NCBI GenBank assembly: GCA_035559815.1
Contig: DATMAT010000057.1
Span: 6,359-70,358 of the forward strand
DNA length: 64,000 nt
Reading direction: 5' to 3'
Origin: Thermodesulfobacteriota bacterium
Lineage (GTDB): Bacteria; Desulfobacterota_D; UBA1144; Nemesobacterales; CSP1-2
The position numbers and the translations under genes are program-made. The notes beneath the pieces were generated by a model. The model saw only the letters and a program-made list of their open reading frames with translations, was not told the DNA's origin and ran no database searches. Numbering within the stretch: position 1 is the first letter of the stretch; every line of letters begins with the position of its first letter. Positions 22,124-44,869 of this stretch are shown in pieces.

Positions 22124-22128
22124 ATTTT

Positions 22129-22156
22129 GTAGGGGCACATTGCAATGTGCCCCTAC
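22129..22156. repeat. Perfect 28-bp palindrome GTAGGGGCACATTGCAATGTGCCCCTAC
   Basis: Read directly. Starts 6 nt after the YVTN gene stop. Related copies at 41451 and 53393. Confidence 0.7.
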
Positions 22157-22198
22157 TTATCCTAACGTCAACATCGAGGTCGTTAAAAAGGGAAAGCG

Positions 22199-24566: not shown

Positions 24567-27392
24567 ATGATTGATTTTTCTTTCCTTCATCAAAAGAGCA
24601 TTAATTCCTATCTAGTCATAATGCTGATTACTTTATCTCTACCCTCGTGCGTAACGATAAAAAAAGCGGATATTAAAGTTCAGGACGAAGGAGCAGTACG
24701 GTTAATCACCGAAGGCGGGAAATTGTACGACCGGGGAAGATATGATGAAGCCCTGGGAAAATTCTCTGCGGCGGAGGCAGAGACCAGCTTGCCCCAGGAT
24801 AAAATTAGGATTGCGGACATATTATCCAAAGGCGGCTTCGACCTCTTCGAGAAAAAGCTCTTTGATGCTGCACTTTCCTACTACAACCAATCACTGAAGA
24901 TAAACAGGGTTTTAGATAACAAGCCGGGACTGGTTAATGACTACAGTTACATGGGAAGTATTTACACGGATATAGGAAAATACGACGAGGCGATCCTTCA
25001 CTTCAATCAGGCCATCGAACTGCAAAAGGACATGAATGATAAAGCCGGAGTAGTTCACAACCTGAATAACCTCGCCAATCTCCACGGCTACCTGGGCGAC
25101 TACCAGGAATCTATAAATCTTCTAAACCGGGCCCTTCAGATTAGCCGGAGCACCGACGTCCCGACCCAAACGGCAAGAACACTGATAAATCTTGCCGCTA
25201 TCGATTTTCGCCTGAGAAACTACGAAAAATCTATTGATTACCTAAACCAAGCACTTCAGATTGCGGATAGGGTAAAAAATGAAAACCTGAAAGCGGAAGC
25301 CCTAAACCTAACCGGCGTCGTCTACAGAGAGCAGGGTGAATTCGATAAGGCTTTAGCCAATTACCTTGCCGCGCTGAAAATCAACAAGAAAGAGGGCGTT
25401 GAAGCTGCAATCATAACCAGCCTTAGCACTATTGGCGAATTGTATAAGGAGACTGGAAGATACGGCCAAGCTCTTCAATACATTCAGGAATCTCTCCACC
25501 TGAGCAGGGAATCGAAAAACCAACTGATGACCGCCGTCAACCTGAATTACATGGGGGAGGTGAGATACAAGCAGGGAAAATACGACCAGGCTCTCAATCT
25601 TTACCAATCATCCTTGGGAATCTTTGAAGAGCTTGGGTTCAGGGACCGGATAGCCAGAAGCTACAACAACATCGGTTACCTGAGAGGGGAAACCGGGCAG
25701 TGGGATTCTGCGATCGAGAACCTGGATAAGGCCATCTCCATCTATAAAGACCTGGGAGACAGGGAGTGGGTCCGCATCTCTCTCTTTGGCCGGGGACTTT
25801 ATTCAGAAGAAAAAGGGGACCTTCTTTCCGCAGAAAAAAACTACAAGGAGGCCGTGGATATATTTGAATCGGTTAGAGAGGACGTCGCCGGGGGCCTGGA
25901 AGCAGAGCAAACCTTCAGCGACGTGAACGTGGAGATTTACGAGAGGCTGGTGTCATTGCTCCTGCGGCTTGGGAAAGACGAGGAAGCGCTCGAGTATATA
26001 GAAAGGAGCAGGTCAAAGAACCTCCGGGACACGTTTCTAAGGAGCGGTATCAGCTCTTTTGACGAGAGAACCAGGGGACTCCTTGAAAGATTTGATGAGC
26101 TTTTCAGAAAAGAGGCTTCCATAAACTACCAGTTGGTGAGGGAAAGAGCAAAGGCATTGCCTAACCCGGAGAAGATAGACAATTTAGTAAAAACATTGGC
26201 CAGGACTAGGGAAGAATTTATGAGAATAAATTCTGCTTTAGAGTCCGAAAATCCCAAGCTGTACGGCCTGCTCAGTATAAAACCGGAAGACGTTGCCGAA
26301 CTGGTAAAAAAGAATAGGCTCCCCGGAGACGTTATCTTTGTAGAGTACTTTATCACCGATAAAGAGACCTACATATTTCTCATGAGCGACAGGGACCTGA
26401 AGGTCAAGACCGTTTCTGCGAAGAAAGAGGAACTTGCAGAATTGGTCAAACTGTTTAGAGACCTGATAGAGCTTAATAAATCCATACCCAGCAACCGCTG
26501 GCGGGATGACCAGAGTGAGGAATACGAACAGGCTATAAAACCGCTCAAGAAGACATCATCGACCCTCTACGCCTACCTCATAGAGCCAATCGAGGCTGAG
26601 ATTGCCCCGGCCGAAACCATAGCCGTGATTCCCTTCGGCTCGCTCCATTACCTCCCATTCAACGCCTTGGCAAAAGAAAGGGATGACGGCACGTTGGAAT
26701 TTCTCATAGAAAGGAAGAAGCTCGTCTATATTGTTTCCGCCTCCGCCAATTACCTGGACGTAGTCCTGGGAAACGGCCGTAAAAGAGGAATCGAGAGTCT
26801 GGTTGCCTTTGGCAACCCGGACCTTGGGGAACCGGACCTCGCCCTTCCCTATTCCCAGGAGGAAGTTAAAGCCATAAAAACACTCTTTCCAAACGCCACC
26901 GTGTTCCTGGGAAAGGATGCTACCAAATATAATTTCGAGAGCAACTGGGGGGTGAATGACATAATCCATATGGCCACGCATGCAGTCGTCAAAGGAACGC
27001 CGTCAATACTCTTGGCCCCTTTAGGCACGGGCAGTCTTACCCTGAAAGACATTACCGGGCTGCCCCCTGCCGAGAACACCCATCTTGTGGTGCTCTCCGC
27101 GTGCCAGGCGGCGGTTGTAAGTGACGAAGACGGCCATGCTGCCGAGGAGCTAAACAGTATAGCTCTCGCTTTCAGCATGGTAGGCACCCCATCGGTTATT
27201 GCCACCCTCTGGAGGATAGAGGACAAAGCTACATTTGAGCTGATGGAGGATTTTTATGAGAATTTAAAGAAAGAGGGCAGATTCGATTACGAGGCGTTGA
27301 GAAGGGCACAGTTAGAGATGCTTAAGAGGCCGGATAAATACGGCCAGCCATTCTACTGGGCGCCCTTTATTCTTATGGGGGTATGGGAGTAG
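24567..27392 (+). CDS. TPR-repeat / CHAT-domain (caspase-like) lipoprotein
   Basis: 941 aa. Lipobox LSLPSC, about 8 TPR units (NLANLHGYLGDYQESINLLNRALQI and similar), and a C-terminal CHAT domain with His (IIHMATHAV) and Cys (VVLSACQAA) dyad contexts. Confidence 0.85.
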   Translation: MIDFSFLHQKSINSYLVIMLITLSLPSCVTIKKADIKVQDEGAVRLITEGGKLYDRGRYDEALGKFSAAEAETSLPQDKIRIADILSKGGFDLFEKKLFDAALSYYNQSLKINRVLDNKPGLVNDYSYMGSIYTDIGKYDEAILHFNQAIELQKDMNDKAGVVHNLNNLANLHGYLGDYQESINLLNRALQISRSTDVPTQTARTLINLAAIDFRLRNYEKSIDYLNQALQIADRVKNENLKAEALNLTGVVYREQGEFDKALANYLAALKINKKEGVEAAIITSLSTIGELYKETGRYGQALQYIQESLHLSRESKNQLMTAVNLNYMGEVRYKQGKYDQALNLYQSSLGIFEELGFRDRIARSYNNIGYLRGETGQWDSAIENLDKAISIYKDLGDREWVRISLFGRGLYSEEKGDLLSAEKNYKEAVDIFESVREDVAGGLEAEQTFSDVNVEIYERLVSLLLRLGKDEEALEYIERSRSKNLRDTFLRSGISSFDERTRGLLERFDELFRKEASINYQLVRERAKALPNPEKIDNLVKTLARTREEFMRINSALESENPKLYGLLSIKPEDVAELVKKNRLPGDVIFVEYFITDKETYIFLMSDRDLKVKTVSAKKEELAELVKLFRDLIELNKSIPSNRWRDDQSEEYEQAIKPLKKTSSTLYAYLIEPIEAEIAPAETIAVIPFGSLHYLPFNALAKERDDGTLEFLIERKKLVYIVSASANYLDVVLGNGRKRGIESLVAFGNPDLGEPDLALPYSQEEVKAIKTLFPNATVFLGKDATKYNFESNWGVNDIIHMATHAVVKGTPSILLAPLGTGSLTLKDITGLPPAENTHLVVLSACQAAVVSDEDGHAAEELNSIALAFSMVGTPSVIATLWRIEDKATFELMEDFYENLKKEGRFDYEALRRAQLEMLKRPDKYGQPFYWAPFILMGVWE

Positions 27393-29247: not shown

Positions 29248-29886
29248 GTGGTGAGAGAATCGAATAATCCGATACAAATAGCCTTAGCATCGCGCTCCCA
29301 GTTTTTTCTCCAAGGAATAAAAAGGATTCTCCAGGATGAGGGCGACATAAAGATAGTTGCCGAGGTTATCGATTCAAAAGAGGTCAAGAAATGTATTAAA
29401 GAGATAAAACCGGACTTTATATTTATCGACAATAGAACCCCGGAGTTTAGCATCCAGGATCAACTGAATTCCTTGATTAATAAAAATTGCACTACCCGGT
29501 TTATCTTATTCGACACCTATAGGGGGGAAAAACATTTTTCACGAAACATCGTATATATAAGCAGGGAAGCAGGCTCCAAAGAATTAATCGAGAGCGTGAG
29601 AAAAAACAGCCGGAGTAATGAAGGTGCTCAAGACAGGAAAGATTACTCGGGCCATGACAAAAATAGGCTTACAAACAGGGAAGCAGACATAGTTAATTTA
29701 ATCAAAATCGGCATGAGCAACAAAAGAATTGCTCAAAGACTCTCCATAAGGGAAAAAACGGTGAAGGCAAACCTGACCAATATTTTTACGAAACTACAGG
29801 TCCAAAGCAGGTACCAGCTCCTAGTGCGGGCCAGGCAGCAAGGCCCTAATAATTCTTCAGAACATGAATTTTCAAAAACCGGCTAA
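29248..29886 (+). CDS. LuxR/NarL-type regulator with an atypical (pseudo-)receiver domain
   Basis: 212 aa. C-terminal HTH LTNREADIVNLIKIGMSNKRIAQRLSIREKTVKANLTNIFTKL. The receiver-like N-terminus has IALASRS where the acidic DD pair normally sits, and retains FIFIDN. Confidence 0.7.
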   Translation: MVRESNNPIQIALASRSQFFLQGIKRILQDEGDIKIVAEVIDSKEVKKCIKEIKPDFIFIDNRTPEFSIQDQLNSLINKNCTTRFILFDTYRGEKHFSRNIVYISREAGSKELIESVRKNSRSNEGAQDRKDYSGHDKNRLTNREADIVNLIKIGMSNKRIAQRLSIREKTVKANLTNIFTKLQVQSRYQLLVRARQQGPNNSSEHEFSKTG

Positions 29887-33179: not shown

Positions 33180-33536
33180 TTATTGGCAAAACTTATCTAC
33201 CGTACAAATATCATAGGTATCACAGAAAGGCCCCCATGAAAACGGCCAGCAATCCGTCACCGGGGAACATTTCTTTGCACACCTACCGCTGCTACACTGA
33301 TTATTACTCTCGCACCGGCTCCCTCTGGGGAGATTACTACCGGAGGGTGGTGGGGGTTGGTCAGCACCTCCGTTCCCCACAGGCCTACTAAAAAGCCACT
33401 GAAGGAGTTGGTCCAAAAATTGCGGACTAACCACATCTCCCGGCAATAGTGAACGTGAGGATCTCTGTTGGTAGTAACCTCTTGTTTTATATAGCGATAC
33501 CTCCGCTGTAAACCCTGGAAGTGTAGATATTCTCAT
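33180..33536 (-). CDS. Leader-bearing Cys-rich protein P9 (118 aa)
   Basis: AAGGAGG Shine-Dalgarno. N-terminus MRISTLPGFTAEVSLYKTRGYY. C-terminal 8-Cys region CESNNQCSSGRCAKKCSPVTDCWPFSWGPFCDTYDICTVDKFC. Confidence 0.7.
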   Translation of the reverse strand: MRISTLPGFTAEVSLYKTRGYYQQRSSRSLLPGDVVSPQFLDQLLQWLFSRPVGNGGADQPPPPSGSNLPRGSRCESNNQCSSGRCAKKCSPVTDCWPFSWGPFCDTYDICTVDKFCQ

Positions 33537-33620: not shown

Positions 33621-34094
33621 CTAAACAAAACAGATGCCCCCATATCCGGGTAGCGTCACAGTGGAACAGGACGCACCGACAAAGGGAATCGGAACACAAA
33701 TTCTATTTCTGCAGAGGCAGGGAGTAGTAGAGAAAAATGTCATAATTGCAGTTCCGGCGATCTGTCCCGATACGCTCGATGTGCGTGCTATAGCGCCCGG
33801 CATATATGCAATCAAGTTACGATCACATTGGCAATCAAGATATCCGCGGCGACCGTAGCAGAGGTCATGTTCCCTACATACTGCATCGACTGCGTCTATG
33901 GGCGGTGTATTTCCGGTTGGATCACCGAATCCGGGCCCGCAGTAATTGCCGTAAACCGGGACGCTGAGTTGTTGCGGCAATACCGGATCTTGTTTGGAGC
34001 GTAGGTTTATCTTTACGCCTTTATTGTCAATGCCGTAACGCTTTATTTGCCTGCCTAAGCTGGCCTCCGCTTTAAATCCTGGCACCTTGTTCAT
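33621..34094 (-). CDS. Leader-bearing protein P8 with a phospholipase-A2-like domain (157 aa)
   Basis: AAAGGAG Shine-Dalgarno. N-terminus MNKVPGFKAEASLGRQ. YCGPGFGD, then about 17 aa, then CREHDLCY, which is the secreted-PLA2 Ca-loop and His-Asp motif arrangement. Confidence 0.7.
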   Translation of the reverse strand: MNKVPGFKAEASLGRQIKRYGIDNKGVKINLRSKQDPVLPQQLSVPVYGNYCGPGFGDPTGNTPPIDAVDAVCREHDLCYGRRGYLDCQCDRNLIAYMPGAIARTSSVSGQIAGTAIMTFFSTTPCLCRNRICVPIPFVGASCSTVTLPGYGGICFV

Positions 34095-34118
34095 TTCATT
34101 CAACTCCTTTTTTTGTAT

Positions 34119-34925
34119 TCACCGGTCGTAGTAAGGTGACATCTTTGTAACCAAGAACGGAAACTCCGACCACAAAAGCGCAATGGCACCTGTTACAAAT
34201 GGGGCTGCAGCACTAGTTTCTCCAAATGTGAGCGACTTGCCATTAGCCCCGAGGCTGGTAATGTTGTCGCCGGGAGCGCTTAGACCTCGCTTTCCGATAG
34301 AACTTCCTAGGTTCGAGTAGTTAATCGGTCTACCTTGAAGGTCGCAGGCAACAACCGGAATAACCCACGTGTGACCGGTAACGGCAGAACTTCCGATAGT
34401 CCCCTGATTCCCAGCCGCCGCAACAACAATAACACCACCCCTTGCAGCATAATCTAGAGCCTTTTCTAATTCGCGCTCACCTTTAGATGATGGTTGTGCA
34501 AGTGCAGCGCTTAGGTTTATTACACGCGCACCTGCATCAATGGTCTCTATGATTGCCCCTGCAAGCTCCTCTGGGGTTGCGCTTGGCAGGGATTTAGCGG
34601 GCTCACCCCAGGTCTGTCTGTTTCCCGATGCCCTCTCTGAAAAAATGGGACGTACAAGCAGTGTGCAATCAGGACAGATTGCCGGAGCTAGAGAACCCCT
34701 CCTACCGCACAAGATGCCTGCCACAAACGTCCCATGCATACAGGCAGCACTGCTTGCTACGGTGTATGTCCCATCCAGTTTTCCAGGAACCTCGCGGATA
34801 TTTTCACCTGTAAGGCTGGGATGGTTAATTATGATGGGGCCATCTATTAACCCAACTGTAATTTCGGGTCTACCGCTTGTGAGTTCCATCAATGCTGTGA
34901 GCTTGACCACATCCAAAGGATTCAT
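34119..34925 (-). CDS. Subtilisin S8 peptidase, second copy, C-terminally truncated and fused to the tail of the PatG-DUF-like gene (possibly decaying)
   Basis: 268 aa, highly similar by eye to the peptidase at 41599-42495 up to LLWSEFP. It then ends FLVTKMSPYYDR, identical to the last 12 aa of the protein at 40062-41006. GLIDGP, HGTFVAG and AAAGNQG are kept, but the Ser motif reads GETSAAAP (Gly to Glu). No obvious Shine-Dalgarno. Confidence 0.65.
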   Translation of the reverse strand: MNPLDVVKLTALMELTSGRPEITVGLIDGPIIINHPSLTGENIREVPGKLDGTYTVASSAACMHGTFVAGILCGRRGSLAPAICPDCTLLVRPIFSERASGNRQTWGEPAKSLPSATPEELAGAIIETIDAGARVINLSAALAQPSSKGERELEKALDYAARGGVIVVAAAGNQGTIGSSAVTGHTWVIPVVACDLQGRPINYSNLGSSIGKRGLSAPGDNITSLGANGKSLTFGETSAAAPFVTGAIALLWSEFPFLVTKMSPYYDR

Positions 34926-35001: not shown

Positions 35002-35283
35002 TGCCATTGTCTTACAAAGAATAGGTTATTGTCAAGGAAAATTTTTTCTCCCTACTTTACTTCTGAGGAAGATGAAAATTACGTAGATACTGTAAAATTT
35101 TTGAGAATGTAGAAAGAGGTGAGTTAAAAGCTATAACAAGCAAAGTCCCCGACTTCACTCAGATAGCTGTAGGAGTTTTGAGGAAGGTGAGAACTTTTCT
35201 TACAAACGATCTGGATTTCAAGGAAATAGAGAGCATAAGAGTTATACAATTAAGTAACTTTAAAACGGTCAAGCAACCTTAAA
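35002..35283 (+). pseudogene. Degraded PIN-domain (VapC-like) remnant
   Basis: Open frame without a start codon reads ...ERGELKAITSKVPDFTQIAVGVLRKVRTFLTNDLDF. The PIN-like ending KEIESIRVIQL is only reached after a 1-nt shift in an A-run near 35220. The N-terminal catalytic region is absent. Confidence 0.3.
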
Positions 35284-35512
35284 TGTCTTTCCGATAAGAA
35301 CGAGTCCTTCTAACTCTTCTCTCTCAAGCTTTCTTCTAATCTCGTCAAATTTCCTTACAGTATCGGGTGCGTAGAATCTCTTACCACATTTTAGACATAC
35401 CTCAAGCCATAACCCTAAGAACTGCCGTGTTAGTTCCACCTCATAGGAGCTTATCAACTTCCTTTTCGACGATTTCCCCTCCACACACAGGACATTTATC
35501 AAATAGCTTCAT
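35269..35512 (-). pseudogene. YgiT-type zinc-finger (MqsA-like antitoxin) gene with an internal frameshift
   Basis: ATG at 35512 overlaps the upstream stop as ATGA and encodes MKLFDKCPVCGGEIVEKEVDKLL, then stops at 35441-35443. The second zinc knuckle (EVCLKCGKRFYAPDTVRKFDEI) continues in another frame, which is the listed ORF 35269-35502. Confidence 0.5.
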
Positions 35513-35847
35513 CCCTTTGTTAAAACCTCAATAATATTTTTCATATTCTCAAATACTTCTTCTACCGATGGCTCTTCACACGGCACATGCTTTCCTGCCT
35601 CCCCAAAGGGATGATAGTGCCATCCCTTCAGATTATCAATTCCATAAATCCTCTCGTTCTTATGTATCAGTGCAAAATCTTTCCTTTCAGTCTCACAGTT
35701 AGCATAAATGTCTATCAGTAAATCTTGTTGAAAAGTAATTCGAACATATAGGTGAGTATTTCGAACTATATTGTATTGAAGCGTAACTAGAGGGAAGAAT
35801 TTCTTAGAGGCGTTATTTATCTCTTCTAAGAAGCGATTTAAATCCAA
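35509..35847 (-). CDS. DUF6516/TumE-like putative toxin
   Basis: 112 aa. RIYGIDNLKGWHYHPFGEAGKH resembles the DN..H.HP...H core I associate with TumE-family proteins. Translationally coupled to the zinc-finger gene. Confidence 0.4.
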   Translation of the reverse strand: MDLNRFLEEINNASKKFFPLVTLQYNIVRNTHLYVRITFQQDLLIDIYANCETERKDFALIHKNERIYGIDNLKGWHYHPFGEAGKHVPCEEPSVEEVFENMKNIIEVLTKG

Positions 35848-35859
35848 AAAGGCACCTTT

Positions 35860-36189
35860 CTACTCTAGGTTTTTAAGTAGTTCAAGCCATTTTTTCTTCT
35901 CAGCCTCTAATCCTTCCCAGACCATGTAATGCCTCTCTACCCGATGAGAGTACTTGTTCTCTATTTCTCCTCTCTCCCAGGCATCTGCAAATTCATTAAA
36001 GGTGCTCCCATATTTTACCTCAAACTTGTAAATTTCCTCTTCACATTCCCGGAGACGCCTAGCCAGATCAGACTTTATCAATTTGAGTATTTTTTCTCCC
36101 GGTGTATCTCCTTCAACATAATCGAAAAATTCGAGTATCTCTTTAGATAGGTCTAACGTAGGCATCTTATTTTCCTTATTTTGACTCAA
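35860..36189 (-). CDS. Hypothetical small helical protein in the TA islet
   Basis: 109 aa, 12 nt upstream of the TumE-like gene. No recognisable domain. Confidence 0.35.
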   Translation of the reverse strand: MSQNKENKMPTLDLSKEILEFFDYVEGDTPGEKILKLIKSDLARRLRECEEEIYKFEVKYGSTFNEFADAWERGEIENKYSHRVERHYMVWEGLEAEKKKWLELLKNLE

Positions 36190-36245
36190 TTAACTACACA
36201 GATTCTACCTTCCTATAATGACAAATGTCAAAAAACTAACTCCAT

Positions 36246-36539
36246 CTAGTGTTCTTCTCGTTCTGCGACAAAGTCCGCCTGTGGTGAGCAAAGTCGAACC
36301 ACTGTCAGCGAGCCAGGAATCTTCGAGAGAGCTTTCCTCACCGCCTCGAGGCTTATGCTCTCATCCACCTCGGCGGCATAGAGTTGCAAGCATTCGACAA
36401 CTAGCCATTCCTCCTCCGAAGGGATTGCTGGCAACTTAGACACGATTAAGGTGACGCGCTCGTGCTCACGGAGGTCAAGCGGTTCCAGCAGACGTAATAC
36501 ACCATTCTCATAAACCGCTTCAAGCCTTTTACTCATCAC
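36246..36539 (-). CDS. DUF104 (AF2212-like) antitoxin-family protein
   Basis: 97 aa. N-terminal LEAVYENGVLRLLEPLDLREHERVTLIV is the typical DUF104 motif. Confidence 0.5.
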   Translation of the reverse strand: MMSKRLEAVYENGVLRLLEPLDLREHERVTLIVSKLPAIPSEEEWLVVECLQLYAAEVDESISLEAVRKALSKIPGSLTVVRLCSPQADFVAEREEH

Positions 36540-36681: not shown

Positions 36682-36930
36682 TCAGAAACAGATCCAACGG
36701 CAGTATCCACCCCAATGAGGCAGGCACACCCGGACGCATGAGGGCTCCACAATAGGCCACCGAAGCAAGTCTGGCCTAAAGAACTGTGTATCTGTGAAGA
36801 GCAATTGCGCTGGATATATGGTTACGTTAGCTTGGTTCAGAAGAGTGATCATCTGGTAATGTTCACTTGTCTTATAGAGTGATACTTCTGCGGTGAATCC
36901 CGGCATCTTCATCTGGTTCATTTTATTCAT
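36682..36930 (-). CDS. Leader-bearing Cys-rich peptide P7 (~82 aa; start uncertain, 36930 or 36921)
   Basis: N-terminus MNKMNQMKMPGFTAEVSLYKTSEHYQ. Putative core after IYPAQ is LLFTDTQFFRPDLLRWPIVEPSCVRVCLPHWGGYCRWICF (4 Cys). Confidence 0.7.
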   Translation of the reverse strand: MNKMNQMKMPGFTAEVSLYKTSEHYQMITLLNQANVTIYPAQLLFTDTQFFRPDLLRWPIVEPSCVRVCLPHWGGYCRWICF

Positions 36931-37029
36931 CCCCACTTCAACAAAATTTTTTGACCTCACTTCCGCTAGGAGATATGTCGTTGCACTTAGTAAATCGTTT
37001 TTCACCCTCCTTAATCAGAGAGCGAAGAG

Positions 37030-37995
37030 TCAGACCGGGATACAACGCCCCGAATCGAAGAGGCAAGTCCAACCAGGTGGACAGCCACTGTTGCCACAAC
37101 ACGACCAACCCGGCGGAGCACACTTTGTGCCATTAGCACAGCAGGAGTGACCAGGCGGGCAGCAACCCCGCCCGCAACACACAGGAGCCCACGACGGACA
37201 GCAATGGTCGCCACAACACCGCTCACCAGATACGCAGCAGCGGTTGCCACAAGTCTGACCCGCCGGGCAACAACCACCGCCGGTGCATACTTCTCCTGGC
37301 CCACAGCAGTGATTGTTACAGACTCGACTAGGTGGACAGCAGCCCTCGATGGTGCACTGCTCTCCCGGAGCACAGCGACGGTTATTGCAGACTCGATCTG
37401 CAGGAGCACAGCCGTCCAGGGTGCACACTTCTTCCGGCGCACAACAACGCTCGTTGCAGACTCGATCTTTAGGGCAGAAGCCGTCCCTAGTGCACTGCTG
37501 CCCATCTGGCACATAACAACCGAAACCGAAGCAGCATCGTTGACCTGGCGGACAGCAGCTTAATGTATATCCGGTTGCCGTTTCATTAAGGATGTGGCAG
37601 CATTCATGGTCTCCCGGGCAACATTCCGGACGCTTTCCGATGCGCCCGCACAACTTCATTTCAGGTGGACAGAGAGGAGGAATGAACTCGCATTGGACCA
37701 AGCACTGTACTCTGCATTCATCACGCAGAATCGCGATTGGAACATCCGGATTATCAATGCGTCCAGCTTTGACGCAGGCACCTACGCAGCGATCAACACA
37801 GGGTTTTTTATGGCAATATTCCATGCACTGATGGTCAGGGTGGCCAGCCCTGAGGCAATCGTCCATACAACGATTCACACCGTTGTATGCCGGGTATATA
37901 GTCTCATTCACTTGGCTAGAAGTCCCAATAGTATAGTAGTGCCCGCTCGTTTTATAGAGTGACCCTTCTGCGGTAAATCCTGGTATCTTGTTCAT
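37030..37995 (-). CDS. Leader-bearing giant Cys-rich repeat protein P6 (321 aa)
   Basis: N-terminus MNKIPGFTAEGSLYKTSGHYY. About 58 Cys by my count, with CCPPG..CC motifs. Three tandem 23-aa units RVCN..CCAPEEVCT.DGCAPAD are also visible as repeated TTGCAGACTCGATCT at nucleotide level. Confidence 0.75.
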   Translation of the reverse strand: MNKIPGFTAEGSLYKTSGHYYTIGTSSQVNETIYPAYNGVNRCMDDCLRAGHPDHQCMEYCHKKPCVDRCVGACVKAGRIDNPDVPIAILRDECRVQCLVQCEFIPPLCPPEMKLCGRIGKRPECCPGDHECCHILNETATGYTLSCCPPGQRCCFGFGCYVPDGQQCTRDGFCPKDRVCNERCCAPEEVCTLDGCAPADRVCNNRRCAPGEQCTIEGCCPPSRVCNNHCCGPGEVCTGGGCCPAGQTCGNRCCVSGERCCGDHCCPSWAPVCCGRGCCPPGHSCCANGTKCAPPGWSCCGNSGCPPGWTCLFDSGRCIPV

Positions 37996-38064
37996 TTAAT
38001 TCGCCCCTAATTTCAATCATAATATGTCGTGCCTAATCACGGCCTTCACCCGGGTGCATAAGGT

Positions 38065-38388
38065 CTAAGTTCGAGTAGGGCTGCATCCTTTGAGGCATTC
38101 TCGATAATTCTCATCGCAGATAATACAGTGGGTAGATCCCTTCGGGTTTTCAGGCGTGCCTTCACAACCCTCCAAACACAGGACCCAGGCTATATAGCAA
38201 AGACCTCTACAAAGCGAACGCCCGATCCCGCCAAAAAGCCCAGAACCGGGCGATACAGGTAATGGATTAATAGTCAGTTGAGAAATAACTCTTTGCCCAC
38301 AGTTGCTATAAGCTTGCATCGCTATAGACTGGTACTGCTCACTCGTCTTATAAACCGATGCCTCTGCTGTGAATCCCGGTGTTTTCAT
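38065..38388 (-). CDS. Leader-bearing Cys-rich protein P5 (107 aa)
   Basis: N-terminus MKTPGFTAEASVYKTSEQYQ. C-terminal region LCRGLCYIAWVLCLEGCEG...HCIICDENYRECLKGC. Confidence 0.7.
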   Translation of the reverse strand: MKTPGFTAEASVYKTSEQYQSIAMQAYSNCGQRVISQLTINPLPVSPGSGLFGGIGRSLCRGLCYIAWVLCLEGCEGTPENPKGSTHCIICDENYRECLKGCSPTRT

Positions 38389-38441
38389 TTCATCAACCCC
38401 CATTTATTTCAGATTATCCCTACAGCAGCCGACCTAAACCC

Positions 38442-38693
38442 TTAGGCCATTCCCCCGCCACCACAGACCCCAAAGCACGCACCGCACGTCAAAAAATCTC
38501 CTGGGTCTGGCACAGGCGACATAACAAGGAAAGCCGCACAGGCTAGGCAAGCGGTCATGCAAAACCTGCTTCTGAACATCGCCGGAACGATCCCACTTTC
38601 TTTCATATCCGAACTATAAGAAACCGTATATCGTCCAGTAGACCTGTATACAGAGGTTTCTGCAGTAAATCCAGGCAAATTCATTTTACTCAT
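38442..38693 (-). CDS. Leader-bearing Cys-rich peptide P4 (83 aa)
   Basis: GGAGGTG Shine-Dalgarno. N-terminus MSKMNLPGFTAETSVYRSTGRY. Hydrophobic Cys/Gly-rich core FCMTACLACAAFLVMSPVPDPGDFLTCGACFGVCGGGGMA. Confidence 0.7.
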   Translation of the reverse strand: MSKMNLPGFTAETSVYRSTGRYTVSYSSDMKESGIVPAMFRSRFCMTACLACAAFLVMSPVPDPGDFLTCGACFGVCGGGGMA

Positions 38694-38748
38694 TTTATTC
38701 ACCTCCTTCACACATTGTTCAAAACCGAGATGAGTGCAGTAATCGGTC

Positions 38749-39126
38749 TTACCAGCCGAACCCGACACCTAGCTCGGTGTCGCAGGTCGTATCTGGCACG
38801 TCCCATTCACCCCAAATATTAAACCAAGTGTTTTTACACCGGTCTGGAGGCCGACCTTCAAGACCCGGAGTCGTTCGACAAGCTTCTTCCCACGATACGC
38901 CCCAAGGGATACCCCACAATATGGCTGAAAACTGTCGCCGTCCGCAGCCTGACCCTTCCGTCCACCAACAGCCGCGCTTAGTACAGTGATCTCTCTTGAA
39001 GCTACCCCAGGTCTGGGCCGGCACAAGGCGTCCCATTTCCGTCGGCATGTACTGAAAACCCGCTCGATACTGATGGCTCCCGCGATATAGCGAAGCCTTT
39101 GCGGTAAATCCAGGTATTTTGTTCAT
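38749..39126 (-). CDS. Leader-bearing Trp/Cys-rich protein P3 (125 aa)
   Basis: GGAGGTG Shine-Dalgarno. N-terminus MNKIPGFTAKASLYRGSHQY. The core has 6 Cys and many Trp (GCWWTEGSGC...ILWGIPWGVSWEEAC...NTWFNIWGEWD). Confidence 0.7.
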   Translation of the reverse strand: MNKIPGFTAKASLYRGSHQYRAGFQYMPTEMGRLVPAQTWGSFKRDHCTKRGCWWTEGSGCGRRQFSAILWGIPWGVSWEEACRTTPGLEGRPPDRCKNTWFNIWGEWDVPDTTCDTELGVGFGW

Positions 39127-39177
39127 TTCATTCACCTCCTTTTTTCACTCCCTCACCAGACCCTAGAGACCGAACAC

Positions 39178-39588
39178 TCAGATCAGGGTGCAGAAAGAAG
39201 GACTACATCCTATGAAGGGTGCACATATTCTCCTGCACTTTGTCCCCGCCGGACAACAGCCCTCGTTATTACAGCAGGACGTACCGGGCGGGCAACAACC
39301 ACGAGCACAGCAAGGATGACCAGGGGGACAAGAGTGGGTGCCGCAGTTGGGTCGAGGTGGAGGAGGTGGGGGTGGAGTACAAGATACTTCTTTACAAATA
39401 GGTCCTCCTGTTTCTGGGTCATATCCAAAGCAACAGGTCTTCTGCCCATTTTCACATGGCGTGCACCCTTTAATCTGTTGTAGTACTAAGCCGCTAACTG
39501 ACTTGCTAGTCCAAGTCGATTCAAGCGCATAAATCCCAGCCGTCCTGTAGAGCGAAGCCTCTGCGGCAAATCCCGGCATTTTGCTCAT
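39178..39588 (-). CDS. Leader-bearing Cys/Pro-rich protein P2 (136 aa)
   Basis: GGAGGTG Shine-Dalgarno. N-terminus MSKMPGFAAEASLYRTAGIY. The core has a poly-Pro tract PPPPPPPRP and CCPPGTSCCNNEGCCPAGTKC repeats similar to P6. Confidence 0.7.
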   Translation of the reverse strand: MSKMPGFAAEASLYRTAGIYALESTWTSKSVSGLVLQQIKGCTPCENGQKTCCFGYDPETGGPICKEVSCTPPPPPPPRPNCGTHSCPPGHPCCARGCCPPGTSCCNNEGCCPAGTKCRRICAPFIGCSPSFCTLI

Positions 39589-39657
39589 TTGACTCACCTC
39601 CTTTCTCTTTTTCCTCCGTCCGTATAGAATTCACCTGATAAACCGCCGCGGTCTCAA

Positions 39658-40026
39658 CTAGTCAATCGCTACCAAGCTGTCAACACAGTCACGCCACGGC
39701 TCACTTGCCGGCACCCAACCCCAATAGCAGCCAGGCGGTTCAGGACAGATCTTTGCATACTTAAACCATTGGCATATCCGGCACTCGGTTTGAAAAGTCA
39801 GACCCCAAAATTTCCATGTGCTGGTCGTTTTATCCCAGCACAATTTTTTCATCGTAAACACTACGCCCGGCATTGATGTTGGCACGTCAACGGTAGATAG
39901 TGTGCCCATCAGTCCCTGGGTAAGAACCAACGCACCTACTCTCACGCCTGCACGATTCGGGGCTACTGCATAGCTCATGGCTGATTTGTAGAGCGAGACC
40001 TCTGCTGTAAACTCAGGCAATTTCAT
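39658..40026 (-). CDS. Leader-bearing Trp/Cys-rich protein P1 (122 aa)
   Basis: GGAGGTGA Shine-Dalgarno. N-terminus MKLPEFTAEVSLYKSAMSY. Core LCWDKTTSTWKFWGLTFQTECRICQWFKYAKICPEPPGCYWGWVP...DC. Confidence 0.7.
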   Translation of the reverse strand: MKLPEFTAEVSLYKSAMSYAVAPNRAGVRVGALVLTQGLMGTLSTVDVPTSMPGVVFTMKKLCWDKTTSTWKFWGLTFQTECRICQWFKYAKICPEPPGCYWGWVPASEPWRDCVDSLVAID

Positions 40027-40061
40027 TTCCTTCACCTCCATTCAATTGAATCCGGTCGACC

Positions 40062-41006
40062 TCACCGATCATAATACGGCGACATCTTTGTAACCAGGAA
40101 CGGAAACTCCTCGGTCACATCCACACGGGTAAAGAACTTCTCGGTAACGTCCGTCTGACGATTGGTGAAGGAGAAAATGACATCTACAACCTTGCGTGTG
40201 CCGCTGAGAGGCGAATGACGAACTTCTACCGCTGTCAAAGAAGAGTTTTGAGCAAAAGCCTCCGCAGCTTTAGCATAGATGGCGTTGTATCGTACTGCCA
40301 GATAGTTTAAAGCACGGTGGTCGTCAGTGGCTCCGGCATTGTCAGCTATCTGCATTATCCTCATGAATAGCTCCTCTGCTGCTGGGGTGAACTCCTTTGC
40401 TGACATCTTTTCCGGCTTAGGAATAGATTTGATTAGAGAATCGATATCGAATGAATACATCTGGTCGAACACAACAATAGGCACCATGAGTCCATTGCAC
40501 ATCTCTGGCGGGGCGATTGGCCCTCTCATGCCAATAACCACATCAACATCAGTGGGGCGTGGAGCGGGACGTAAGGCCTCCACTAACATATCCAGGTCCG
40601 CAGGGTCGCGCGGCACCAGAATGTATGTCTCCAAACCCTCAATGGTTAAAACCCAGCACATCTGTCTCACCAGGTAGCGGTTCTGTCTATGGGTCAGAAC
40701 CTTGTGGAGTGCCTCTCGGTCGGTAAGCCCGGCTGTCTTTTCCCGCCCTGTAACTTGGGCGAATTCCTTCTCCACAGCTAAACGAGGAAAGCGGGCCTCG
40801 ACCCTGCCCAGGGCATAAACGAAGCTGGGTGTAACTCCGCCATTTGACCCGGTGGAGCTTCCGCATGTAGGACACCCTCCCCCTCCAGCTTGGGTGGGAA
40901 GAATAGTTCCAGTACGACTTTCAGAAGAGGATACTACTGTTGGTGAGTCTTTCACGTTAACGGCTTGCTCTCCCATCTGTTCCTTCGATTCAACATTTTC
41001 TTCCAT
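40062..41006 (-). CDS. Protein resembling the C-terminal DUF of cyanobactin proteases PatA/PatG (PatG_C/PatG_D-like)
   Basis: 314 aa from the ATG preceded by AAGGAGGAG. FVYALGRVEARFPRLAVEKEF, CWVLTIEGLETYILVP, LMVPIVVFDQMYSF, DHRALNYLAVRYNAIY and FTRVDVTEEFPFLV follow the motif order I recall for the PatG DUF (VYALG..GYDFG.EARRD.F ... DRALNF ... DVS..PV). Recalled from memory, not verified. Confidence 0.5.
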   Translation of the reverse strand: MEENVESKEQMGEQAVNVKDSPTVVSSSESRTGTILPTQAGGGGCPTCGSSTGSNGGVTPSFVYALGRVEARFPRLAVEKEFAQVTGREKTAGLTDREALHKVLTHRQNRYLVRQMCWVLTIEGLETYILVPRDPADLDMLVEALRPAPRPTDVDVVIGMRGPIAPPEMCNGLMVPIVVFDQMYSFDIDSLIKSIPKPEKMSAKEFTPAAEELFMRIMQIADNAGATDDHRALNYLAVRYNAIYAKAAEAFAQNSSLTAVEVRHSPLSGTRKVVDVIFSFTNRQTDVTEKFFTRVDVTEEFPFLVTKMSPYYDR

Positions 41007-41199
41007 GATATTTCTCCTCCTTTCAGGATAGATTTCAAAGGCTTCATAATTAGCCACAAAGACTCAAAGGAAATTGTTAACGAGTTAGCTTACGCCTTTT
41101 GTCGTGTTAGCGAGTTTGCGTGTTATTTTTCTAGCTCGTAAACCAGCAAACACGTTAACCCGCAAACATTGTTTCTTTGTGCCTTGGTGGTTTATATTT

Positions 41200-41418
41200 T
41201 TATCTCGAACGCCTGCCAGAGAAAACCAGCCAACCGTTGAGTGTGGAGGCGCGACGTTCACATCCGCCACACGGTTTAATCCCAATAGTAGACGTGACTC
41301 GCTTAATCGCATCACCCAGTCCAATTTCCTCATCGCTAATGAAACCAGGAAGACGAACCCGGTAAGGCTGTCCTTTAGTCTTACTTCTTTGACCATTTCT
41401 TGTTTCTTCCTTTTTCAT
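41200..41418 (-). CDS. Small basic protein with an LPGF motif and a C-x-x-C pair (72 aa)
   Basis: AGGTGA Shine-Dalgarno. MKKEETRNGQRSKTKGQPYRVRLPGFISDEEIGLGDAIKRVTSTIGIKPCGGCERRASTLNGW. Lies between the S8 and DUF genes. Confidence 0.4.
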   Translation of the reverse strand: MKKEETRNGQRSKTKGQPYRVRLPGFISDEEIGLGDAIKRVTSTIGIKPCGGCERRASTLNGWLVFSGRRSR

Positions 41419-41450
41419 GACATTCACCTATGTTACGCAAATATACATTA

Positions 41451-41477
41451 TAGGGGGACGCTGCAGCGTGCCCCTAC
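41451..41477. repeat. GTAG...CTAC-type palindrome copy (TAGGGGGACGCTGCAGCGTGCCCCTAC)
   Basis: Read directly. Imperfect relative of the palindromes at 22129 and 53393. Confidence 0.6.
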
Positions 41478-41496
41478 CTAAGTTGAACGCACAACT

Positions 41497-41569
41497 GTCA
41501 TTCCCGCACGCTTATGGATACCCCACAGCTCCCCGATAACTACATTCGGGGACAGGATTCGGGTATGAC
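41497..41569. repeat. MITE-like element (GTCATTCCCGC...ATGGATACCCC...ACATTCGGGGAC...GGGTATGAC)
   Basis: Same family as 15686-15802 and 45647-45716. Inserted between the S8 gene and the small ORF. Confidence 0.6.
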
Positions 41570-41598
41570 AATGTAAAAAAGCGAATAACGTGAGATAT

Positions 41599-42495
41599 TC
41601 ACCTCCTTAAACCAGACCTTATAATCTGATACGCCCCCCATGCATCAAGCAAGGGTGGAACTACCGTATTTCTCCTTCGCCCGTTCGACCGTGTAATCAC
41701 GACTTTCATATCAGCACCGGTAGCTTTTGGGAACTCTGACCAAAGCAGCGCAATAGCCCCCGTCACAAAGGGAGCCGCAGCGCTCGTTCCGCTGAACGTG
41801 AGTGGTTTGCCATCGGCTCCGAGGCTAGTAATGTTGTCGCCGGGGGCGCTCAGACCTCGTCTCCCTATCGAATTTCCCAGATTGGAGTAACTAATCGGTC
41901 TACCCTGAAGGTCACAGGCAACGACCGGGATAACCCAAGGGTGACGGGTGATAACAGTGCTACCAACTGCTCCCTGATTTCCCGCCGCTGCTACAATCAA
42001 AACGCCTCTCTTTGATGCATAATTCAAAGCCCCTACTAACTCTCGTTCACCTGTGGAAGATAGCTGCGCCATAGCTGCACTCAGGTTTATCACGTGCGCT
42101 CCCGCATCAATGGTCTCGATTAATGCCGCTGCTAGTTCATCGGGAGTGGTACTGGGCATGGGCTCTAGATGCTGGCTGCGGCTATTTCCATTTCCTGACA
42201 TCGTCTCAGCAAAAATAGGACGCACCAACAACGTGCAATCAGGACAGATAGCCGGAGCTACAGAACCCCTCTTTCCGCACAAAATTCCTGCCACGAATGT
42301 TCCATGCAAACAGGCGACACTACTTGCCTGTGCACATGCACCCGCAAGTTTTCCAGGGACCTCACGAATGTCTCCACCTGAAAGATCCGGATGGTCTAAT
42401 AACACGGGCCCGTCAATCAGACCAACTACTATCTCTGGCCTCCCGCTGGCAATATCCATCAAAGCGGTGAGCCTGATTAAATCCAGATGATTCAT
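41599..42495 (-). CDS. Subtilisin-family S8 peptidase without a signal peptide (PatA-like)
   Basis: 298 aa from ATG 42495 (GAGGTGAGG Shine-Dalgarno). Catalytic contexts VGLIDGPVLLDHP (Asp), CLHGTFVAG (His), AAAGNQG (Asn) and FSGTSAAAPFVTG (Ser). No hydrophobic N-terminus. Confidence 0.8.
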   Translation of the reverse strand: MNHLDLIRLTALMDIASGRPEIVVGLIDGPVLLDHPDLSGGDIREVPGKLAGACAQASSVACLHGTFVAGILCGKRGSVAPAICPDCTLLVRPIFAETMSGNGNSRSQHLEPMPSTTPDELAAALIETIDAGAHVINLSAAMAQLSSTGERELVGALNYASKRGVLIVAAAGNQGAVGSTVITRHPWVIPVVACDLQGRPISYSNLGNSIGRRGLSAPGDNITSLGADGKPLTFSGTSAAAPFVTGAIALLWSEFPKATGADMKVVITRSNGRRRNTVVPPLLDAWGAYQIIRSGLRR

Positions 42496-42683
42496 GCGTG
42501 GATTCCTCACCTCAACCCAGTGATAGGAGTTAAAAACTAGATAAAGACTAAAGGAGAACGAGTACTTACAGTTAATCTTTCAAGTGAGCAGAAATAAACA
42601 ACCGGCGGTTATCGTTAATAACCTGATGTTGTGGACAGAAGTTGCTTAGGCTCTTTATAGTTATTGCTCTCCCTCTCAGGGTG

Positions 42684-42753: not shown

Positions 42754-43695
42754 TCAACTGCCCGCCAGAGCCTTAATCATGATCTTCATCACCTCGACAT
42801 TGCTCTGCTTTCCCACCGGGTTTGGGACGATGATCGGAAGTTGAACCCCTGCTTCTCTGTAAGCCTCGAGTCTTTCACGGCACCTTTCGGCAGGGCCAAC
42901 CAAAGCCACCGCGTCCAGTAGGTCATCGGAAAACGCCTCGGCTGGGCTTACACCAGATTTAATCTTCTCCACCACATCGCCAAATCCTAAGTTTGTAATC
43001 AAGCGCTGGTAGAAAGGAAAGCGGGCATAGCCGGAAAGACCGCGCTTTCCGGCGTTTCTGGCAGCTTCCAAGTCGTCGGAGATAAAACAAGGGATTCCAT
43101 TGGTGATGTCGATATCCGAAGGAGCACGGCCGGCCTTTTCCGCACCTCTTTTAACCGCGCCTATCAGCTTCTTCAAATGACCGGGAGTAGCCATATAGGG
43201 CATGATGCCGTCTGCTACCTCGCCGGCCAGTTCCGCCGCTTTTTCGGTCAGCACCGCCGTGTATATCGGGAGATAAGGGAGTTGTCTTTTGATTGTCAAG
43301 AGTGGCGAGCTTCCATCAGCGAAGGACCTGACCGCTGTCACATATTTTCGCATTTCCTCGATCGGGTCTTTCATGTCAATTCCGAAGCGGTCATTCACCG
43401 GCTTATGACTGACACCCAACCCAAGCACCATCCTTCCGCCTGAAATTTCCTGAACAGTAAGGGCCTCGGCCGCACATATAACCGGCTGGCGCATGTAGAT
43501 ATTGGTTATCCATGTACCCACTTTAATTTTCGAGGTCGCCTCGGCAAAAACCTGGGCGTTAGCCAGGGCGCTGTAGGGTGGCACCTCCGGGGAAAATATC
43601 GCCTCGAATCCCCCAGCCTCCGCTTCTTTGGCTAAAGCGCGAAGGTCGTCTACGCTGCATCCCCATACCGGTGAAATGGTCGCTATCCGTTTCAT
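42754..43695 (-). CDS. Luciferase-like (LLM class) flavin/F420-dependent oxidoreductase
   Basis: 313 aa. TIM-barrel LLM pattern (FEAIFSPE..., GRMVLGLGVSHKP). Confidence 0.75.
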   Translation of the reverse strand: MKRIATISPVWGCSVDDLRALAKEAEAGGFEAIFSPEVPPYSALANAQVFAEATSKIKVGTWITNIYMRQPVICAAEALTVQEISGGRMVLGLGVSHKPVNDRFGIDMKDPIEEMRKYVTAVRSFADGSSPLLTIKRQLPYLPIYTAVLTEKAAELAGEVADGIMPYMATPGHLKKLIGAVKRGAEKAGRAPSDIDITNGIPCFISDDLEAARNAGKRGLSGYARFPFYQRLITNLGFGDVVEKIKSGVSPAEAFSDDLLDAVALVGPAERCRERLEAYREAGVQLPIIVPNPVGKQSNVEVMKIMIKALAGS

Positions 43696-43811
43696 TCATC
43701 TTCTCCTCCTTTTATTTTGGCCACGAATTCTCACCAATAGTCTCGAATGAAAAATGAAAATGAATAAAAAACTGGTATTAGCATTTATAGATTCTAAATA
43801 AGACGCAAAAC

Positions 43812-43896
43812 GTCATTGCCGCATGCATTTGCGGTAATCCAAAGCACTGATGGATGCCCGATTGATCCGCCGGTTTAAACGGGGGACGGGCATGAC
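43812..43896. repeat. MITE-like element (GTCATTGCCGC...GCGGTAATCC...ATGGATGCCCGATTGATCCGCCGGTTTAAACGGGGGACGGGCATGAC)
   Basis: Combines modules seen separately at 15686-15802 and 15817-15856. Confidence 0.6.
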
Positions 43897-43975
43897 CATC
43901 ATAAGACATACAGAACAGGAGTGAACGAGGTTTTAATTTGTGATAATTCGTGTTCATTCGTGGCTAAATAGTCAT

Positions 43976-44869
43976 CTAATACTGATTAATCACATCCCGG
44001 TAAAAATCGGGGCGGAGCAAAGACTCATCTCCTCTTTCCAAGACCGCTCTTATCTCTTCCAAGACCCTTTCCTTATCCTGGGGGAATCTTGCTTTGATAG
44101 GAAGATAATTAGAGATGTGATTCGAAAAGAAATACCCGTCAGTCAGGTTTGTATTCTCGACGATAATTTCTAGCTCTTTTATCATCTGAAACTTATCCGG
44201 GAGTTTGAACTTTCCGTCAAGCCACTCCTGGTAAATCGGAGCCCCCGGGCGGACCTGAAGGGAAAGTGCCCCTACATACTCAGGGTCAGTATCGGTCAAG
44301 AGCCTTCCGGTCGCATATGCATGCTCAAGGCTTCTATCCACCCCGCCAACCCCGAGAAGAACCATGGCCGAGTTTTTGACCCCGGCCTCTTTAAGGATTT
44401 TTGATGCTCTTACCGTCTCCTCGTAATTTGCCCCTTTTTTAATCCTTTCTAGAACTATATCGTCTCCGCTTTCAAATCCGATGTAAACCATCTCCAACCC
44501 GAGGTCCCTCAGCACTTTTAAATTCTCAGCTCCTTTTCTCAGGATGTCGCTAACGTTTGCATACATGGTAATTCGCTGCAAGTCCGGACGTTTCTCCTTT
44601 AAATACTGCAAAATCTCGACCAGCTTTTTCTGGGGCATGACCAGGGCGTTGCCATCGGCGATGAACACCCGGTTGAAATCATATCTCTCCACAGCTTCAT
44701 CAATAATAGTCTTGATCTCATCTATGGGGCGCATACGAAACCTTTGGGTATCTTTCCGATACATGGCGCAGTAGGTGCACTCGTTATGAGAGCAGCCTAT
44801 CGTAGCCTGAAGGATGAAGCTATTTGCCTCGCTGGGAGGCCGGAAAAGCGGCATGGAATATTCAATCAT
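43976..44869 (-). CDS. Radical SAM protein
   Basis: 297 aa. The cluster motif reads GCSHNECTYC, which is C-x4-C-x2-C rather than the canonical C-x3-C-x2-C, followed by a TIM-barrel-like GFESGDD segment. Confidence 0.7.
   Translation of the reverse strand: MIEYSMPLFRPPSEANSFILQATIGCSHNECTYCAMYRKDTQRFRMRPIDEIKTIIDEAVERYDFNRVFIADGNALVMPQKKLVEILQYLKEKRPDLQRITMYANVSDILRKGAENLKVLRDLGLEMVYIGFESGDDIVLERIKKGANYEETVRASKILKEAGVKNSAMVLLGVGGVDRSLEHAYATGRLLTDTDPEYVGALSLQVRPGAPIYQEWLDGKFKLPDKFQMIKELEIIVENTNLTDGYFFSNHISNYLPIKARFPQDKERVLEEIRAVLERGDESLLRPDFYRDVINQY

Follow-up and report, generated by a model that had tools for sequence, protein, structure and literature searches.

A secreted-type phospholipase A2 precursor bearing the leader of a Cys-rich protein family linked to a PatA-like protease and a PatG-DUF protein

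The window (the entire 64,000-nucleotide stretch of DNA analysed here, to which positions refer unless a locus is named) encodes a secreted-type phospholipase A2 (PLA2) behind the same leader as a family of Cys-rich proteins, and this leader is genetically linked, at many loci, to an S8 peptidase and a PatG-DUF protein. We think it probable, if far from certain, that the protein is a two-module precursor, with the leader serving as a handle for a co-encoded PatA-type subtilisin that would release an active extracellular PLA2 of about 115 aa.

Results

The leader-PLA2 precursor gene

The gene and its parts lie on the minus strand:

33621..34094 (-), leader-PLA2 precursor ORF, 157 aa plus stop (ORF list and translation)
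33969..34094 (-), leader, residues 1-42 (MNKVPGFKAEASLGRQIKRYG...DPVLPQQ), aligning with eight other leaders in the window and predicted to be disordered
33969..33983 (-), junction V38-L39-P40-Q41-Q42, the putative protease cleavage region, with the conserved [VI]xP[QA] motif
33921..33953 (-), Ca2+-binding loop YGNYCGPGFGD, residues 48-58 (alignment to bovine and rice PLA2)
33855..33878 (-), catalytic helix motif CREHDLCY, residues 73-80, with the H76/D77 dyad (alignment to bovine PLA2)
33813..33833 (-), helix-3 motif CQCDRNL, residues 88-94, with D91 as the equivalent of Asp99 (invariance and a weak HMMER pairing)
33624..33722 (-), C-terminal Cys-rich beta-hairpin extension, residues 125-157, with five Cys (strands of the model)

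From its N- to its C-terminus, the precursor thus consists of the 42-aa leader, a PLA2 core of the secreted type and a hairpin rich in Cys. Its translation begins with MNKVPGFKAEASL... and has VLPQQ at residues 38-42. The order of motifs given in a preliminary description of this ORF (VLPQQ, then YGNYCGPGFGD, then AVCREHDLCY, the last being residues 71-80) agrees with the translation, but the spacer between the Ca2+ loop and the catalytic motif, put there at about 17 aa, is 12 residues long. A third PLA2 signature, CQCDRNL (88-94), lies beyond the two that had been listed first.

The ATG at 34094 is preceded, 9 nt upstream, by AAGGAG, while an in-frame TTG at 34103 is an unlikely start because the ribosome binding site would be too near. 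The ten Cys residues of the precursor would be enough for five disulfides. Its leader is a divergent copy, with K8 in place of T and G14 in place of Y. An identical NCBI entry is annotated as a hypothetical protein from a Thermodesulfobacteriota MAG. Neither a Sec nor a Tat signal peptide was found on the precursors, and a scan for promoters and terminators around the PLA2 gene gave nothing above the shuffled expectation.

The core domain is a secreted-type PLA2

By sequence, profile and predicted fold, the core domain is a genuine venom-type PLA2. With Pfam, PF00068 matched the precursor with an E-value of 2.9e-6 and 28.2 bits (gathering cut-off 32.1), and PF05826 reached 12.1 bits (cut-off 22). 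Of the Pfam PLA2 models, the parvoviral one, PF08398, alone passes its gathering cut-off, marginally (24.4 bits against 23.9) and only over residues 44-82. When the precursor was searched against the PDB with phmmer, rice PLA2 was the top match and almost all matches were PLA2 chains or parvovirus capsid VP1 proteins, which bear a PLA2; the single unrelated entry was a lyase with an E-value of 0.32. A profile built from 34 homologs matched 51 distinct PDB sequences at E ≤ 1e-3, all of them PLA2, with a best E-value of 2e-7.

In these PDB alignments (phmmer and profile), YGnYCGpG of the Ca2+ loop falls on bovine YGCYCGLG(G), the rice counterpart being YGKYCG, and Y51-C52-G53-P54-G55 satisfies the Y/W-C-G-x-G pattern of the secreted PLA2 superfamily. 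The catalytic stretch C73-R-E-H76-D77-L-C79-Y80 aligns with bovine CCQTHDNCY and fits C-x-x-H-D-x-C. In a second stretch, HMMER weakly paired CQCDRNL with bovine CNCDRN. Across the 34 homologs G49, C52, G53, G55, C73, H76, C79, Y80, C90 and D91 are invariant. The residue after Gly55, which is the second Gly of the classical YCGxGG, is Phe here and His in relatives.

The AlphaFold2 model of the precursor has a pLDDT of at least 90 at 103 residues, and each 10-residue block across residues 61-150 averages 95 or higher. It contains the three helices of a PLA2 fold (68-83, 88-104 and 108-123), followed by a hairpin at 125-151 with strands 125-136 and 140-151 (pLDDT of at least 87). Leader residues 10-41 are below 50, i.e., predicted to be disordered, and the VLPQ(Q) junction sits exactly where the disordered part of the model gives way to the folded part. 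Foldseek against the PDB ranked rice PLA2 first, with a probability of 1.0 and a TM-score of 0.60 on the target. Against a viral structure library it returned the PLA2 regions of parvovirus VP1, many VP1 models having probabilities of 0.98-1.0. The PLA2 domain proposed from the motifs in the preliminary description is therefore upheld, as the Ca2+ loop and the His-Asp dyad align with catalytic positions of the bovine and rice enzymes, and the structure prediction suggested there as a check (AlphaFold2 with Foldseek) matched the PLA2 fold. Ca2+-dependent sn-2 acyl hydrolysis, as in the secreted PLA2 superfamily, is predicted for it. Membership in the bacterial and fungal group XIV sPLA2s (PF09056) was rejected, with neither a profile nor a fold match.

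A shared leader defines a large precursor family

A six-frame motif scan of the window found nine ORFs, all on the minus strand, that share the start M-x(0-8)-[PL]-[GE]-F-x-A-[EK]-x-S-[LV]-[YG]. Besides the PLA2 precursor these are:

33180..33536 (-), the next leader-bearing Cys-rich precursor, 118 aa, MRISTLPGFTAEVSLYKT..., downstream of the PLA2 gene
36682-36930 (-), first of seven further leader-bearing precursors (motif scan and ORF lists, as for the six below)
37030-37995 (-), second further precursor
38065-38403 (-), third further precursor
38442-38693 (-), fourth further precursor
38749-39135 (-), fifth further precursor
39178-39588 (-), sixth further precursor
39658-40041 (-), seventh further precursor

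The seven together span 36682..40041 (-). Alignment of the nine leaders, in which P5, F7, A9, S12 and Y20 are invariant, confirmed that the PLA2 and the Cys-rich proteins have a common leader, as had been proposed. The family consensus is M-x-PGFTAEASLY-x3-Y ... [VI]xP[QA].

A profile of the nine leaders matched 2,166 representatives of 50%-identity clusters at E ≤ 1e-3, and in almost all of the 150 matches listed the leader match covers residues 1-38 of a protein of 40-200 aa. One matching protein of 3,189 aa (P0123) was rejected as a family member, being a eukaryotic repeat protein matched by chance through ...DVSVYKSGKHYTV.... Two metagenome proteins (P0121 and P0145) have two leader motifs per chain, e.g., MNTMKMPGFTAEASFYKT...MNIPGFTAEFAV..., and probably result from read-through or from tandem precursors fused in gene calling.

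Genomes, one per species, were then scanned with a back-translated leader pattern. This yielded 90 loci, as against about two expected by chance (estimated from the degeneracy of the pattern). The bacterial hosts among these loci come from many phyla and include cyanobacteria, Nitrosospira, Nitrosovibrio, Nitrotoga, Methylococcales, Acidobacteriota, Brocadia, Chloroflexota and actinomycetes, so that the family occurs in diderm and monoderm bacteria as well as in archaea. Nitrosospira multiformis (L044), Methylobacter luteus IMV-B-3098 (L038) and Calothrix sp. NIES-4105 (L028) are carriers that can be cultivated. Archaeal genomes with the leader include those of ANME, two from Methanophagales (L045 and L058) and one from Methanoperedens (L070), and the last of these also has the S8 and DUF genes; the system thus crosses the boundary between bacteria and archaea.

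From the 90 loci, 170 precursor ORFs were extracted. Their median length is 88 aa, with a median of six Cys after residue 30, and the number of Cys in the cargo is even in 158 of the 170. The [VI]xP[QA] motif lies about 29-35 residues past PGF in most of them. A conserved leader followed by a hypervariable core, as in RiPPs, is evident from this set, the leader alignment and the profile, and cores across the family are disulfide-rich and range from 30 to 280 aa.

No Pfam model matched the other window precursors, and no NCBIfam model matched any of the nine. A leader-bearing protein of 173 aa from a betaproteobacterial MAG (L027, 3185-3706, minus strand) matched Pfam Kazal_1, a serine-protease inhibitor domain, with an E-value of 6.5e-8; together with the PLA2, this makes two eukaryote-like secreted domains that occur on the leader. 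The nine other long cargos that were scanned had no Pfam match. Long leader-bearing cargos of 230-320 aa (window 37030-37995, minus strand; L015 2276-2971; L057 5209-5910; L093 3736-4419; L002 2-697) consist of repeated CCPxG / C-x-GE-x-C units, with 32-34 Cys in the three locus cargos that were counted; they are granulin-like in look and have no Pfam match.

Full-text literature searches and the curated libraries Pfam, NCBIfam and PADLOC gave no description of the leader family, the leader-PLA2 fusion or the small ORF described below. The family with its PLA2 cargo thus appears to be undescribed, its components (sPLA2 fold, PatA-type protease, PatG DUF and leader/core logic) being individually of known kinds.

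The leader is linked to an S8 protease, a PatG-DUF protein and a small ORF

All-versus-all clustering of 1,925 ORFs of at least 90 aa from the 90 leader loci gave only two real conserved gene families. The most conserved neighbour is a PatG_D plus PatG_C (DUF) protein, present at 63 loci, and an S8 peptidase is present at 53. The remaining large clusters are antisense shadows of these two genes or groups of precursors. Both genes, and a small ORF found between them, occur in the window:

41599..42510 (-), full-length PatA-type S8 protease, 303 aa (Pfam S8 and PDB matches)
41200..41427 (-), small conserved ORF (...RVRLPGFISDEEIGLGDAIKRVTSTIGIKPCGGCERRASTLNGW...), recurring at 37 places
40062..41057 (-), PatG_D plus PatG_C (cyanobactin DUF) protein, 331 aa (Pfam E-values 1e-32 and 5e-35)

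The best PDB matches of the window S8 are the N-terminal cyanobactin proteases PagA and PatA (E-values about 1e-30), and its matches to the PatG and PagG macrocyclases are weaker (1e-14). By these matches it is PatA-like, i.e., of the leader-removing protease type. The DUF protein matches the PatG DUF structure (PDB 4uvq) with an E-value of 1e-5. In most of its 37 occurrences the small ORF (60-75 aa) stands between the S8 and DUF genes (e.g., L016 3871-4095 and L023 4264-4536); its consensus is ...RVRLPGF[IV]SDEE[IV]GLGD[VA]IKR.T...GI.PCGGC.RRAA.LNRW, and it had no match in Pfam, NCBIfam or PADLOC. As the small ORF and the precursor leaders have an LPGF-plus-acidic motif in common, its product could be a leader mimic, a regulator or a docking partner of the precursor system.

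No conserved transporter was found within about 4 kb of the 90 loci or beside the window cluster, and neither a heterocyclase, a macrocyclase nor another modifying enzyme is conserved across these loci; YcaO is absent among the window ORFs scanned. The locus neighbourhoods thus show no dedicated modification beyond proteolysis and disulfides. As in cyanobactin pathways, a PatA-type S8 and a PatG DUF are present, but NCBIfam TIGR03895 gave 113 bits against a cut-off of 421, and a YcaO heterocyclase and/or PatG macrocyclase acting on short cores is lacking. Macrocyclisation was rejected because the S8 is PatA-like and the cores have no conserved C-terminal motif. By inspection, without the use of a predictor, no signal peptides were seen on the S8 and DUF proteins. 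PADLOC returned a generic subtilase match for the S8 protein and nothing for the DUF protein, the small ORF or the PLA2, and no known defence system was assigned for this reason.

That the family does not consist of classic small RiPPs, as had been suggested from the window precursors, is supported by the 90 loci, where the protease, the DUF protein and the small ORF are the sole conserved neighbours, and by cargos that include PLA2 and Kazal domains.

Leader-PLA2 homologs and leaderless relatives

The leader is present in 21 of the best 120 homologs of the PLA2 precursor. All 21 keep H-D at the dyad, 17 have exactly ten mature Cys, and the [VI]xP[QA] junction is present here as well. In independent metagenome contigs, leader-PLA2 homologs with 54% and 50% identity are neighbours of S8/PatG_D/PatG_C genes, which are fused in two contigs (L003 and L004) and split in a third (L005), and further leader-bearing Cys-rich ORFs occur next to them. 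In four homologs the VxPAQ junction is followed by an additional Cys-rich module and a Pro-rich linker before the PLA2 begins, an arrangement that places the end of the leader at the junction. A PLA2 cargo occurs at none of the 90 genome loci, indicating that this cargo is rare.

The other 99 of the best 120 homologs (P0021-P0120; loci L007-L009) form a leaderless sister group, in which the few source names on record are Rubrobacter or Rubrobacteraceae. The N-terminal region of these proteins is Lys-rich and their C-terminal tail hydrophobic (LALLYFSLAERNLALGETLFKRT), they have only four Cys, and 20 of the 99 have H-N in place of H-D at the dyad. The C-terminal Cys-rich hairpin of the leader-bearing homologs is missing from the Rubrobacter-type relatives, which nonetheless retain the junction sequence ITPQQLS. 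In the one genomic context examined, a leaderless gene adjoins a CAP-domain gene, and the S8 and DUF genes are absent nearby.

Neighbourhood of the PLA2 gene in the window

The main cluster of precursor, S8 and DUF genes occupies 36682-42510, and the PLA2 sub-cluster is set apart from it by toxin-antitoxin-like genes at 35269-36539. A second, partial S8 gene lies next to the PLA2 gene:

34119..34925 (-), truncated S8 paralog (S8'), Pfam Peptidase_S8 E-value 1e-25, 24 nt upstream of the PLA2 gene

At its end, S8' has the final 12 codons of the PatG-DUF gene (EFP followed by FLVTKMSPYYDR), with the junction at a GAGTTYCC microhomology; the chimera was compared by DNA alignment of 34119-34160 (-) with 40062-40100 and 41650-41830. 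These alignments fit a diverged copy of the operon that lost the C-terminal end of S8, the small ORF and almost the entire DUF gene by deletion. S8' is absent from a related MAG contig with 69% identity (L002), where the PLA2 gene comes directly after other precursors.

Of the four small genes in the interval 35269-36539 (-), one has an AF2212-like antitoxin-type domain; the four may be toxin-antitoxin genes or mobile cargo. About 6 kb from the PLA2 gene, 24567-27392 (+) encodes a 941-aa protein with TPR and CHAT (caspase-like protease) domains, and its neighbours include a GerE/LuxR regulator (29248-29886) and beta-propeller/NHL proteins (19805-24127). An AMP-ligase gene, the GerE gene and neighbouring genes are syntenic in the related contig. 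Immediately upstream of the S8 gene, 42754-44869 (-) encodes a luciferase-like monooxygenase and a radical SAM protein. The radical SAM, luciferase-like and AMP-ligase genes were rejected as parts of the system, since they are not conserved across the 90 leader loci.

Discussion

Proposed maturation of the precursor

In the pathway that we favour, the first module would be the intrinsically disordered leader of about 42 aa, common to a large precursor family, and the second a minimal secreted-type PLA2 (Ca2+ loop, His76/Asp77 helix and Asp91 helix) extended by a hydrophobic helix and a disulfide-stapled hairpin. The co-encoded PatA-type subtilisin, together with the PatG-DUF protein and the small ORF, would recognise the leader and cut at or just past VLPQ(Q), freeing a five-disulfide PLA2 of about 115 aa. 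Its new N-terminus would lie 6-10 residues before the Ca2+ loop, according to the bond cut; mature bee-venom PLA2 (IIYPGTLWCGHG) has a comparable distance between its N-terminus and its Ca2+ loop. After oxidation outside the cytoplasm, and with Ca2+ available there, it would hydrolyse the phospholipids of other cells.

Paired cysteines and Ca2+ chemistry point to action outside the cytoplasm. As the S8 and DUF proteins have no signal peptides by inspection, processing would be cytoplasmic, where an active PLA2 is dangerous. Either the cut is made in the cytoplasm and the protein, still reduced, has no activity before its export or release, or the machinery is sited at the membrane in a way that is invisible in sequence. 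Activation of a zymogen by leader removal, raised in the preliminary description, is plausible by analogy with pancreatic pro-PLA2 and with the truffle enzyme TbSP1, which is described as activated by removal of an N-terminal segment (reference 40 in the list of PMC11525133). The leader is predicted to be disordered (pLDDT <50 at residues 10-41) and so gives no structural sign of blocking the active site.

Alternative explanations

It is conceivable, though in our view unlikely, that the leader is chiefly an export or addressing signal for some secretion machine, with the S8 protease merely trimming it during or after export. Double-glycine leaders, which are trimmed with export by PCAT transporters, are a precedent. 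Something must export precursors that have no Sec or Tat signal, and the cargos are rich in paired Cys and include domains (PLA2 and Kazal) that are normally extracellular. However, no transporter is conserved near the 90 loci or the window cluster, and the occurrence of the leader in diderm, monoderm and archaeal hosts argues against a dedicated, envelope-specific machine. Moreover, the conserved partner is a homolog of the N-terminal proteases of cyanobactin pathways, which are described as cytoplasmic. On the same grounds (no conserved transporter, the spread over diderms, monoderms and archaea, and a partner protease of the leader-removing PatA type) the idea that the proteins are "leader-addressed" for export, put forward in the preliminary description, found no support. 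Given these sequence comparisons, the leader seems better read as a processing tag than as an export address.

We give still less credence to the PLA2-like domain being inactive, either a membrane- or receptor-binding toxin scaffold such as the Lys49 snake myotoxins or just a stable disulfide fold. The H-N dyad in one fifth of the leaderless relatives (20/99) indicates that loss of the Ca2+-binding Asp is tolerated, and Phe or His stands after Gly55 where classical PLA2s carry a second Gly. However, the window protein and all 21 leader-bearing homologs retain H-D, and His76, Asp91 and the loop glycines are invariant.

Finally, action inside the producer, e.g., as a suicide or anti-phage module triggered by the protease, with a PLA2 that destroys membranes once its leader is gone, would suit the cytoplasmic look (by inspection) of the S8 and DUF proteins and the nearby TPR-CHAT and toxin-antitoxin-like genes, but we regard it as very improbable, as PADLOC gave just a generic subtilase, hypervariable even-Cys cargos better match extracellular diversifying selection, and five disulfides are not expected in a reducing cytoplasm.

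Implications

The leader family comprises about 2,100 clusters at 50% identity, from nitrifiers, methanotrophs, cyanobacteria, Acidobacteriota, anammox bacteria, actinomycetes and ANME archaea. Nearly all of its cargos are orphan sequences of no predictable function, among which the PLA2 and Kazal cargos offer a rare foothold, and the PLA2 fusion is the first biochemical clue to the role of the Cys-rich mini-proteins. These two cargos suggest that the products are folded extracellular-type proteins directed against the membranes or proteases of other cells, rather than small modified peptides, and the family might conceivably function as a toxin arsenal. Cyanobactin-type protease/DUF machinery is thereby extended to protein-sized substrates, which suggests a testable role for the long-enigmatic PatG DUF. 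A new lineage, similar to the animal, plant and parvovirus enzymes, also joins the few known bacterial secreted PLA2s.

More tentatively, and with the balance of our judgement still leaning against it, the PGFTAEASLY leader, PatA-like S8, PatG-DUF protein and small ORF could together be an unrecognised bacterial and archaeal platform for maturing hypervariable disulfide-rich effectors, which leader removal would activate and of which the PLA2 would be the first enzymatically assignable cargo. If true, this would be a prokaryotic counterpart of venom-gland precursor processing.

Comparison with known systems

The window PLA2 core resembles the plant group XI, bee-venom group III and parvoviral PLA2s, with 22-31% identity over about 90 residues to rice OsPLA2 (2wg7) and bee-venom PLA2 (1poc). 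Unlike the plant and bee enzymes, it has an additional C-terminal hydrophobic helix and a Cys-rich hairpin, it is prokaryotic, and it carries a RiPP-style leader where plant XI and bee III enzymes have a Sec signal and a short propeptide. With the parvovirus VP1u PLA2 (PF08398) it shares the minimal PLA2 core, but the viral domain lacks disulfides and belongs to a capsid protein. The group XIV enzymes (Streptomyces violaceoruber, 1LWB; Tuber TbSP1, 4AUP) and TtaP/DUF1353 are also small secreted-type His/Asp PLA2s (PMC11525133).

Pancreatic pro-PLA2 (1hn4, 2bp2) is likewise a PLA2 with an N-terminal extension, which in its case is removed by a serine protease, and it was among the PDB sequences matched by the homolog profile. 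However, the pancreatic propeptide is only 7 residues long and comes after a signal peptide, and the N-terminal helix on which it acts is missing in the window protein.

With the cyanobactin pathway (PatA, PatG DUF and PatE) the leader system has in common a PatA/PagA-like S8, the same DUF, and a conserved leader with a hypervariable core. It differs in having no heterocyclase, macrocyclase or prenyltransferase and in its leader and junction motifs, and its S8 and DUF are often encoded by separate genes with the conserved small ORF between them. Its cores are disulfide-rich proteins of 30-280 aa, whereas those of cyanobactins are peptides of 6-20 aa, and it occurs far outside the cyanobacteria.
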